The notes under the pieces were generated by a model. It ran no database searches and had not been told where the DNA came from. It saw only the letters and a list, made by a program, of their open reading frames with translations. A stretch of DNA of 64,000 nucleotides from Muribaculum sp. (GTDB taxonomy: Bacteria > Bacteroidota > Bacteroidia > Bacteroidales > Muribaculaceae): assembly GCA_023664085.1 (NCBI GenBank), contig JAMPGE010000001.1:17626-81625 (forward strand), read 5' to 3'. Both the position numbers and the translations under genes were made by a program. The first letter of the stretch is position 1; every line of letters begins with the position of its first letter. Below, piece by piece: positions 16,557-43,843 of this stretch.

Positions 16557-16715
16557 AATGTTAGATTTTAATTATTCTTTGCAAATATAATACATAAATT
16601 AACAATCTCCAAATTTTAACATACTATTTTATAGCAGTATCTTCATTACAAAAGCATTGGCAAAATATAAGCATTAGACAAAAAAATCAATATTTGAGAA
16701 TTCAGATATTTAAAT

Positions 16716-16863
16716 TAATGTCACTAAATTAAGAACTGTCGGGGTTCGCCTCGGAGAGGCGAGATTCGTGGTTAACCCCAGGCTTTTGCCTGGGGATCGG
16801 CAAAATAAGTAAAATAAGCCTCGAAGAGGCGATGTAGTGAGAACTCTTATTTTAGTGACATTA
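16716..16863. mobile_element. MITE copy 1 (148 bp, IS4-like terminal inverted repeats)
   Basis: TIR TAATGTCACTAAATTAAGA / TCTTATTTTAGTGACATTA (1 mismatch); flanks ATATTTAAAT / ATATTTAAT; second copy at 41835. Confidence 0.82.
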
Positions 16864-17007
16864 ATATTTAATGTATTTCCAATGTCTTATTGTCTCTCGG
16901 CTCTCAAACTCAAACTGAAATGGTTAATGCCATCGTGACTTTTTCATATTTTTGCCGGAAAGTTTACTATTTTTCAGTCTTTCCTGTTGTGGTACAGATT
17001 TTATACT

Positions 17008-17959: not shown

Positions 17960-18721
17960 ATGTTATCTTTCGGCATCAAAGACATAATCGATGTGCTGAT
18001 AGTGGCCATGCTGCTCTTCTACCTCTACAGGTTGATGAAGCGCAGCGGCACGCTCAGCCTTTTCTACGGCGTATTGCTCTTCATAGGCATTTGGGTGGTA
18101 GCTTCCGAGATCCTCGACATGCGTATGACCGGCACTATCCTCAACCGATTCATGAGCATAGGTCTGCTCGTGCTTGTGATCCTTTTTCAGGATCAGATCA
18201 AGAGATTTCTCATCGACATCGGCAGCCACCGCAAGCTCTCGAGCATAAAACGCCTCTTTAAGCATCAGGTCAAGGACGATAAGGAACGCAAGAGAATCAC
18301 CGCCGTGGTCTACGCTTGCATGGCAATGTCGAAATCCAAAACCGGAGCCCTCATCGTATTCCAACGAAAAATGCCCCTCACCGATTACGAACGCACCGGC
18401 GATGAAATTGACGCCGACGTCAACATGCGTCTCATCGAAAACATTTTCTTCAAGAATTCTCCGCTCCACGACGGCGCCATGATTATAGCCGACGGCAGAA
18501 TCAAATCCGTAGGATGCATTCTCCCCGTGAGCCACGACATGGATATACCCAAGGAATTGGGTCTGCGCCACAGGGCCGCCTTAGGCATGAGTCAGGCCAC
18601 CGACGCCGTCTGCATCGTGGTCAGCGAAGAGACCGGCAACATCACCGTGGCCATGGACGGCTCCCTTCAGGTGAAAGTGGCAGCCAAAGACCTCGACCAG
18701 ATCCTCACCGCATCTCTGTAA
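17960..18721 (+). CDS. cdaA: Diadenylate cyclase
   Basis: Three N-terminal TM helices; SPLHDGAMI and GLRHRAALG DAC motifs. Confidence 0.95.
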   Translation: MLSFGIKDIIDVLIVAMLLFYLYRLMKRSGTLSLFYGVLLFIGIWVVASEILDMRMTGTILNRFMSIGLLVLVILFQDQIKRFLIDIGSHRKLSSIKRLFKHQVKDDKERKRITAVVYACMAMSKSKTGALIVFQRKMPLTDYERTGDEIDADVNMRLIENIFFKNSPLHDGAMIIADGRIKSVGCILPVSHDMDIPKELGLRHRAALGMSQATDAVCIVVSEETGNITVAMDGSLQVKVAAKDLDQILTASL

Positions 18722-41763: not shown

Positions 41764-41834
41764 ATTTTAACTGAAGAAATGAATTACCACCGATTACCAT
41801 CCTCAGATAATTCCTCTTTCATAATTCCTAATTC

Positions 41835-41981
41835 TAATGTCACCAAATTAGGAGCTGTCGGTGTAGCCTCGAAGAGGCGATATTCGTGGTTAACCCCAGG
41901 CTTTAGCCTGGGGACCAACAAGATAAGTAAGATGAGCCTCGAAGAGGCGATGTCGTGAAAACTCTTATTTTAGTGACATTA
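41835..41981. mobile_element. MITE copy 2 (147 bp) with perfect 10-bp target-site duplication
   Basis: TIRs as in copy 1; TTCCTAATTC directly on both sides (41825-34 and 41982-91). Confidence 0.85.
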
Positions 41982-42003
41982 TTCCTAATTCCTAATTCTT
42001 TAT

Positions 42004-43825: not shown

Positions 43826-43843
43826 TAATGTCACCAAATTAAG
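43826..43843. mobile_element. Solo terminal repeat of the MITE family
   Basis: TAATGTCACCAAATTAAG between convergent genes. Confidence 0.55.

Follow-up and report, generated by a model that had tools for sequence, protein, structure and literature searches.

A probable IS4-subgroup MITE family in Muribaculum carries a three-hairpin module that also occurs outside it

Two short and closely similar intergenic segments in the Muribaculum sp. DNA analysed here, a stretch of 64,000 nt that we call the window, raise two questions: which kind of mobile element placed them there, and where the row of three hairpins that fills their interior came from. The first-pass annotation of this DNA had read them as copies of an apparently undescribed composite MITE, with IS4-type ends around a REP-like hairpin triplet, and had suggested in addition that the hairpins are of the HuH type, that the element possibly uses two transposition chemistries, or that it spreads an RNA-structure cassette. 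Our answer is that they represent a new IS4-subgroup MITE family, an element of a known kind (MITE) with an unusual modular passenger. It does appear to be undescribed as far as Rfam and the literature are concerned, with ISfinder outside the comparison: positions 16600-17000 of the window gave no Rfam match at E ≤ 1 on either strand, and we found no literature report of a Muribaculaceae MITE.

The features of the window are collected in Table 1. Both copies lie exactly where they had been placed, and aligned end to end they are 88.5% identical. Each begins with TAATGTCAC and is closed by its reverse complement, and reading of both ends confirms a terminal inverted repeat (TIR) of 19 nt in both copies (TAATGTCACTAAATTAAGA on the left, TAATGTCACTAAAATAAGA at the opposite end). 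The target duplication (TSD), 10 bp long, is perfect on both sides of copy 2 and differs at two of its ten positions around copy 1, just as first described. The neighbouring genes likewise agree with the earlier account: copy 1 sits between divergent ORFs, one of 458 aa on the minus strand and one for a pterin-binding enzyme on the plus strand, and copy 2 between co-directional genes for a T9SS plug-domain protein and a DUF3109 protein. In the interior, a stem of 5-6 bp that carries a GGA or GAA loop comes first, then a G+C stem of 8 bp whose loop has 4 nt, and then the first type again (hairpins 1, B and 3 of Table 1), the stems being conserved between the two copies and the loops variable, as had been noted; single-strand folds of both copies are better than those of shuffled sequences (z = -4.4 to -6.8). 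The truncated left end listed in the table covers positions 1-56 of the nhmmer model, and the solitary 18-mer is either a remnant or a chance match.

Table 1. Coordinates of the MITE copies and of related features in the window.
Feature	Position	Strand	Detail
Left TSD of copy 1	16706..16715		ATATTTAAAT; 2 mismatches vs 16864-16873
Copy 1 of MITE	16716-16863		148 bp
Left 19-bp TIR of copy 1	16716..16734	+	
Hairpin 1 of copy 1	16747..16761	+	6-bp stem, GGA triloop
Hairpin B of copy 1	16776..16795	+	8-bp G+C stem, TTTT loop
Hairpin 3 of copy 1	16818..16830	+	5-bp stem, GAA triloop
Right 19-bp TIR of copy 1	16845..16863	-	
Right TSD of copy 1	16864..16873		ATATTTAATG
Truncated left end of a further copy	20216..20270	+	TIR and degenerate hairpin 1, then unrelated sequence
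Left TSD of copy 2	41825..41834		TTCCTAATTC; within CTAATTC heptamer tract
Copy 2 of MITE	41835-41981	+	147 bp; older subfamily
Right TSD of copy 2	41982..41991		TTCCTAATTC
Solitary TIR-like 18-mer	43826..43843	+	2 mismatches; between convergent genes

The window copies are members of a large family. In the 2.16-Mb assembly (66 contigs, the window being on contig C11), the genome-wide BLASTn search that the first-pass annotation had proposed, together with an nhmmer profile search, brought up 45 copies of full length and about 25 that are partial or lie at contig ends, making up about 0.4-0.5% of the genome. The full copies are 147-149 bp long, without an internal ORF of 60 aa or more, and all 45 are intergenic; 117 TIR-like sites were counted genome-wide, and 19-bp TIRs are found in 38 paired sites. 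When the k bases directly before each of the 45 copies were compared with the k bases directly after it, k = 10 gave 22 perfect matches, a number that rises to 30 if one mismatch is allowed and to 37 if two are, and there was no signal at k = 8, 9, 11 or 12. The consensus of the target has TTAA at positions 4-7 of the duplication, with TAA recurring 7 bp to each side. About 14 copies, copy 1 among them, form a subfamily at 95% identity or more, and 7 form a second one at 98% or more; there are also several pairs at 96-99% (copy 2 and its nearest relative, C6:9870, for example, at 98%) and old singletons at 77-92%. Such subfamilies of different age point to repeated bursts of the element. The family also includes a 218-bp variant with duplicated hairpin units and a 119-bp variant without hairpin B.

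The commonest class of tandem repeat in this genome has a period of 7: 90 arrays of at least three copies, which span 4.5 kb in total, compared with 8 arrays at period 6 and 26 at period 8. Of the 84 merged arrays, 21 lie within 60 bp of a MITE copy, and 12 of the 45 full copies have such an array no more than 40 bp away; the preference for 7-bp-period arrays ties together two unexplained intergenic features of the genus. The arrays are built of varied units (CTAATTC, GAGGTAA, CCATCAA, AAGTCTT and others), two instances in the window being at 41808-41838 and 41981-41998. We also note 61 period-7 arrays, and at most seven of any other period, in 215 kb of congener DNA (loci L006-L128), and that such arrays flank MITEs and the naked cassettes described below alike.

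Could the two window copies resemble each other by chance, or stem from faulty assembly or from a local duplication? The repeat certainly disturbs the assembly: many contigs stop exactly 54-55 nt inside a MITE copy, and therefore the repeat must be what breaks them. This would speak for an artefact, which is refuted, however, by 45 full copies with unique flanks on at least 30 contigs, by the exact 10-bp duplication and by the paralogous empty sites that we describe next, and we regard such an explanation as having practically no chance of being correct.

Empty sites, which the first-pass annotation had named as something to look for, were found both within the genome and among relatives. A dispersed repeat on contigs C26 and C38 (G000:C26:170-520 and C38:11063-11413) holds a MITE with the duplication GAATTTAAAA, and at C11:327318-327414, C40:12679-12818 and C8:1-120 the same repeat is uninterrupted, with a single GAATTTAAAA. 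Outside this genome, the two genes that flank copy 2 are adjacent in six congeners, with spacers of about 10-160 bp, and the element was not found in the genomes of those six; here, element and duplication take up 157 bp of a 240-bp spacer. This orthologous empty site rests on synteny and spacer length, because the congener DNA is only 65-70% identical. At the level of strains, an exact-pattern scan of 185k species genomes met the MITE-specific left junction nowhere outside the own genome, and the 3' end of the upstream gene and the MITE core had no exact-pattern match in JGI metagenomes, which gave no strain-level pair of filled and empty alleles. As a separate observation, the dispersed repeat measures at least 150 bp and exists at least seven times, the MITE being present in part of these copies and missing from the others. 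The motif GTTAATTTTTATCAACTACTT is often found close to it, and the same motif adjoins a number of further MITE copies.

Which enzyme might have moved these copies? The 19-mer end is present in 23 of 201 same-genus genomes scanned, and in G190 two such ends stand 1,490 bp apart (L060:30-1519, a sequence identical to JAMPAV010000001.1), flanked by a perfect 10-bp repeat, TACTAAGTAT. This IS encloses one ORF of 455 aa, at L060:122-1486, and its right end (IRR) is identical over 22 nt to the left end of the MITE, that is, to the first 22 nt of copy 1. The 455-aa transposase scores 88 bits against Pfam DDE_Tnp_1 and 117.7 bits against NCBIfam transpos_IS4_1 (cut-off 115), and has D130, D210 and E317 (spacings 80 and 107) together with Y310-R313-E317-K324, residues that are conserved in 34-35 of 35 homologues. 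The hallmarks of the IS4 family are D(60-110)D(100-150)E and Y(2)R(3)E(6)K (PMC2266710), and members of its IS4 subgroup have ends of the form -AATR--------WTW-, a duplication of 10-13 bp and a size of 1,400-1,650 bp (PMC2266710, Table 1); the partner IS agrees with the subgroup in its TAATG...TTA ends, its 10-bp duplication and its length. Compared with E. coli InsG, the transposase is 22% identical (E = 2e-11), and the IS4 end that the annotation had given could be checked against the annotated E. coli ends in MG1655 (TAATGCCAGTCAGTTAAGCA and TAATGCCGATCAGTTAAGGA), where it matches the MITE end at 15 of 20 positions. The proposal of a DDE-mobilised MITE with IS4-type ends is thus upheld by a same-ended IS4-family IS with a 10-bp duplication in a congener.

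The expectation of a cognate IS4-family transposase held only in part: it is intact in the congener G190, and none was found in the own assembly, where the cognate transposase gave no match at E ≤ 1, the DDE_Tnp_1 profile gave one sub-threshold match only (19.9 bits), and TIR pairs are 78-237 bp or otherwise more than 16 kb apart, with no IS-sized pair among them. Absence of the transposase from the genome is not established by this, because the assembly seems to be without contigs below about 5 kb and may have lost a 1.5-kb repeat contig. Among 201 sampled congeners only one has the cognate transposase, and homologues at 60-97% identity come from metagenome assemblies, mostly as contigs of about 1.49 kb. 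In addition, a 1,528-bp element at L166:2619-4146 (CAYUAK010000016.1) has the same 18-nt ends around the gene of a DDE protein that shares only 19% identity with the 455-aa transposase, and therefore the end sequence is common to quite divergent IS4-like elements.

We propose that the element is very probably a non-autonomous MITE of an IS4-family, IS4-subgroup IS, with a hairpin interior acquired separately. Ends identical over 19-22 bp to those of the 1,490-bp IS, a strict 10-bp duplication, about 70 intergenic copies and both paralogous and orthologous empty sites are observed. A DDE transposase supplied in trans would bind both ends, and the 148-bp unit would be excised by cut-and-paste, a mode established for IS4-family members. 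Reinsertion would proceed through a 10-bp staggered cut, with preference for A/T-rich targets that have TTAA at duplication positions 4-7 and that often belong to 7-bp-period tandem arrays. The interior would then be a module of about 92 nt that pre-existed in the genus and became enclosed between the ends, rather than what remains of an IS after deletion.

Ends of this type are not tied to one interior. In other Muribaculaceae MAGs the same IS4-type ends frame unrelated interiors of 92-557 bp (92, 99, 103, 113, 125, 135, 145, 194, 430, 482 and 557 bp), and most such elements have 10-bp duplications centred on TAA or TTA. The MAG CAMWMK01 has a 147-bp MITE with these ends and the same three-hairpin layout, although none of its three stems has the sequence seen here. 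In order, it has a GGA-looped stem of 5 bp, a linker whose last bases are GTTAA, a stem of 7-8 bp that opens with CCCC, a linker of 22-24 nt and a second GGA-looped stem of 5 bp. Some same-ended MITEs, those of the 99-bp, 113-bp and 135-bp types, are without an obvious G+C hairpin. In the congener G116 we observed a 194-bp MITE with the same ends (L069:1501-1694), whose cargo is two GTAG-tagged palindromes of classic REP-like appearance, GGACGCGC-N4-GCGCGTCC.

The cassette, in turn, is not tied to these ends. In the own genome all 56 cassette matches fall inside MITE matches, and in four cassette-rich congeners (G014, G020, G023 and G007) the ~92-nt cassette occurs without IS4-type ends, at least 36-49 times among the matches listed per genome, or in about 40-100 copies; it is also found in a second genus of the family. 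Of 71 such cassettes with long flanks, 10 are inside an element of 164-173 bp that has GGGTGTTCAGTT ends and is flanked by TA, 16 keep one end of this type and 45 keep none, and a profile of the whole TA-flanked MITE shows the decay of the arms to form a continuum. No duplication was seen around 62 cassettes without the left-arm motif of the TA frame, at all offsets and for lengths of 4-10 bp. Relatives' cassettes without IS4-type ends are co-oriented with tandem genes in a ratio of 31:14 (p = 0.016), a bias that could reflect RNA, replication strand (ssDNA) or ascertainment.

Several side observations belong here. The TA-flanked cassette MITE was met at loci L012, L036, L093, L096, L102, L106 and L116 in G014, G020 and G007; its TA flanks suggest a TA duplication, and its ends resemble those of IS-X, a second IS that is unassembled and was seen, with ends GAGGGTGTTGCAGAACTACCC, at 8 contig ends. 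In the own genome, IS-X and its miniature derivatives of 128 bp and 36 bp sit at the position of hairpin B in MITE copies (C49:9307, C57:34-54, C11:327546-327566, C31:18557-18792, C12:33460-33696 and C10 at about 18090-18125); hairpin B is missing there rather than split, and the slot is occupied by IS-X-type elements in five copies other than copy 1. None of 101 congeners scanned yielded a full IS-X body, and the single internal match, in G083, was discarded as a solo end beside a non-transposase ORF.

One way to read the occurrence of the cassette in several settings is that it is a selected self-standing module, the Muribaculaceae counterpart of REP/BIME, that has been captured repeatedly by unrelated DDE ends. 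The capturing ends would be the IS4-type with its 10-bp duplication and the GGGTGTT-type with its TA flanks; capture might recur as the cassette aids the synapsis or the persistence of elements shorter than the persistence length of DNA, and the cassette could alternatively also move alone as single-stranded DNA. We consider this reading, in its full form, unlikely.

A single-stranded route also underlies the earlier suggestion that the hairpins are HuH recognition structures, of the RAYT or IS200/IS605 type, and that they serve a second chemistry beside the DDE route; this seems to us quite improbable. It would fit that 45 of the 71 relatives' cassettes match neither terminal 12-mer of the TA-flanked frame and that the 62 cassettes without its left-arm motif have no TSD, as HuH insertion expects. 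However, many naked cassettes are explained by decay of the TA-flanked MITE, because about a third of them retain at least one of its arms. GTAG, which is the REP tag (PMC3733652), precedes hairpin 3 in almost all of the relatives' cassettes, and the copies in the own genome have TGAG or TAAG at this place. The Y1_Tnp genes of the own genome and of four cassette-rich relatives were inspected. A Y1-like ORF of 369 aa on G020:C147 does have same-orientation cassettes on both sides, but cassettes flank only this one of 12 Y1-like genes and none of its 11 homologues in five cassette-bearing genomes. Although a lagging-strand mechanism could yield the 31:14 orientation bias of the relatives, the confinement of all 56 cassette matches of the own genome to MITE matches speaks against such a route there and leaves the idea of two chemistries unsupported.

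Nor did the own genome supply the RAYT or IS200 gene flanked by the annotation's hairpins A and B that had been looked for. It has two Y1_Tnp matches, neither associated with the MITE. One is a RAYT-like ORF of 197 aa with a HUH motif (G000:C10:17261-17854, equal to L002:2762-3355). Seven GCGAGCC-N4-GGCTCGC hairpins, distributed over its two sides, take the place of hairpins 1, B and 3; they belong to another family, which the genome has in 45 copies. The ORF scores 61 bits against NCBIfam REP_Tyr_transpos, and the two Y1-like proteins considered for the HuH route, at 61 and 33 bits, stay below the RAYT cut-off of 80. Taken by itself, this ORF with its own hairpins looks like a REPtron-type arrangement in Muribaculaceae. 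Ends of the IS200/IS605 type had also been considered for the element and were rejected on account of its TIRs, its 10-bp duplication and the lack of association with Y1 genes.

What, then, is conserved in the cassette? The covariation analysis that the first-pass annotation had recommended was made on an alignment (A2) of 59 cassettes from five genomes, which includes both IS4-type MITE families. Standard pairs occupy 96.4% of the cells, 10 of 19 pairs have changed on both sides, and 61 double-changed cells were counted, against 8.5 ± 2.6 in column shuffles, none of the 500 reaching 61, and no more than 15 in controls with the partner slid by 1-3 columns; the cell counts overstate the number of events, because the independent stem variants, by inheritance, are only about five. 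Double-sided changes across species are found in five of the six pairs of hairpin 1 and compensatory changes in four of the eight pairs of hairpin B; hairpin 3 is nearly invariant, with 99.3% of its cells paired. While the stems vary, the G and the A in the loops of hairpins 1 and 3 change hardly or not at all. Single mismatches in the stems are G·T in 32 cases and A·C in 29, and from this near equality we see no sign of selection on one transcribed strand.

These stems could nevertheless act in a transcript, the cassette then being a structured RNA module (a 3' stabiliser, a terminator or a processing site) that is spread by the MITE and selected as RNA, an action known for MITEs and REPs of other bacteria (PMC3733652). 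The covariation itself would agree with such a role, but the balance of G·U over A·C just mentioned lacks the excess that a transcript should leave. All MITE copies are intergenic and many lie within 100 nt of a stop codon, yet against co-directional neighbours 14 are in the same and 11 in the opposite orientation, which is no bias, no T-tract follows any of the hairpins, and no terminator-like site was called. The relatives' cassettes offer somewhat more, with their 31:14 co-orientation and with only 8 of 79 between divergent genes. Against this stand also the lack of an Rfam match reported above and the loops themselves, GNA triloops being a motif of DNA stability and not of RNA (PMC3201870). 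We found no positive evidence for the RNA-structure cassette of the first-pass annotation, and give an RNA role only a small chance.

The reading that we prefer, if with somewhat less than even confidence, is that the cassette works at the DNA level. In DNA, d(GNA) triloops on a closing C·G pair have unusual stability (PMC3201870, PMC13037366), and we infer that the C(GNA)G-triloop and G+C hairpins of the cassette may form stable hairpins or cruciforms. Such structures could provide a hinge for the synapsis of two ends only 148 bp apart, and/or could serve as a REP/BIME-like site that is tolerated by the host between genes. The near equality of G·T and A·C mismatches is a hint in this direction. 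Two observations speak against it: the same-ended MITEs of the 99-bp, 113-bp and 135-bp types do without an obvious G+C hairpin, and a strand-specific effect, on RNA or on ssDNA of the replication strand, could lie behind the 31:14 bias of the relatives' cassettes.

Irrespective of how the cassette works, a few aspects of these findings deserve attention. Muribaculaceae are dominant and mostly uncultured gut bacteria whose mobile DNA has barely been described, and a MITE family that causes many contig breaks bears on assembly quality for them. A concrete and testable trio of transposase, end and target is now at hand. We consider the passenger module the more interesting part: a hairpin triplet that is found naked, IS4-framed and TA-framed makes a tractable case for the origin of REP-like sequences, and also lets one ask how MITEs gain foreign interiors and whether internal hairpins help short transposons to move.

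Lastly, the family can be set beside three known systems. With E. coli IS4 and the IS4 subgroup it shares the end signature, 15 of 20 positions of the IS4 left end and the 10-bp duplication, and its partner IS is like the subgroup (PMC2266710) in length, single ORF, D(80)D(107)E and Y(2)R(3)E(6)K. It differs in a transposase distant from InsG, in its Muribaculaceae host, in a partner IS family so far confined to metagenome-derived assemblies and without a name, and in that the element studied is a non-coding derivative rather than an IS.

With BOX of Streptococcus pneumoniae, Correia/NEMIS of Neisseria and BrickBuilt of Porphyromonas gingivalis (PMC4596501) it has in common that it is short, non-coding, intergenic and high in copy number, with TIRs, a strongly folding interior and modules that can be repeated, here in the 218-bp and 119-bp variants. 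In contrast to these, the ends and the duplication length indicate an identified IS4-family partner, and the module also occurs outside the element and in an unrelated MITE frame. We know of no description of a module so shared for BOX, Correia/NEMIS or BrickBuilt.

The likeness to REP/BIME and to REPINs with RAYT (PMC3733652) lies in clusters of short G+C-rich intergenic palindromes, in tens to hundreds of copies, in the mosaic with conserved linkers, in GTAG beside hairpin 3 in relatives, and in the lack of duplications around copies without flanking TIRs. Unlike them, the present genome has no RAYT gene flanked by the cassette hairpins, its hairpins travel only within a DDE-type MITE, and the unit, rather than an inverted REP doublet, is a fixed ~92-nt triplet whose triloops are GNA. 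What is distinct from IS4, from the modular MITEs and from REP/BIME is one conserved module that occurs in two unrelated frames and alone.
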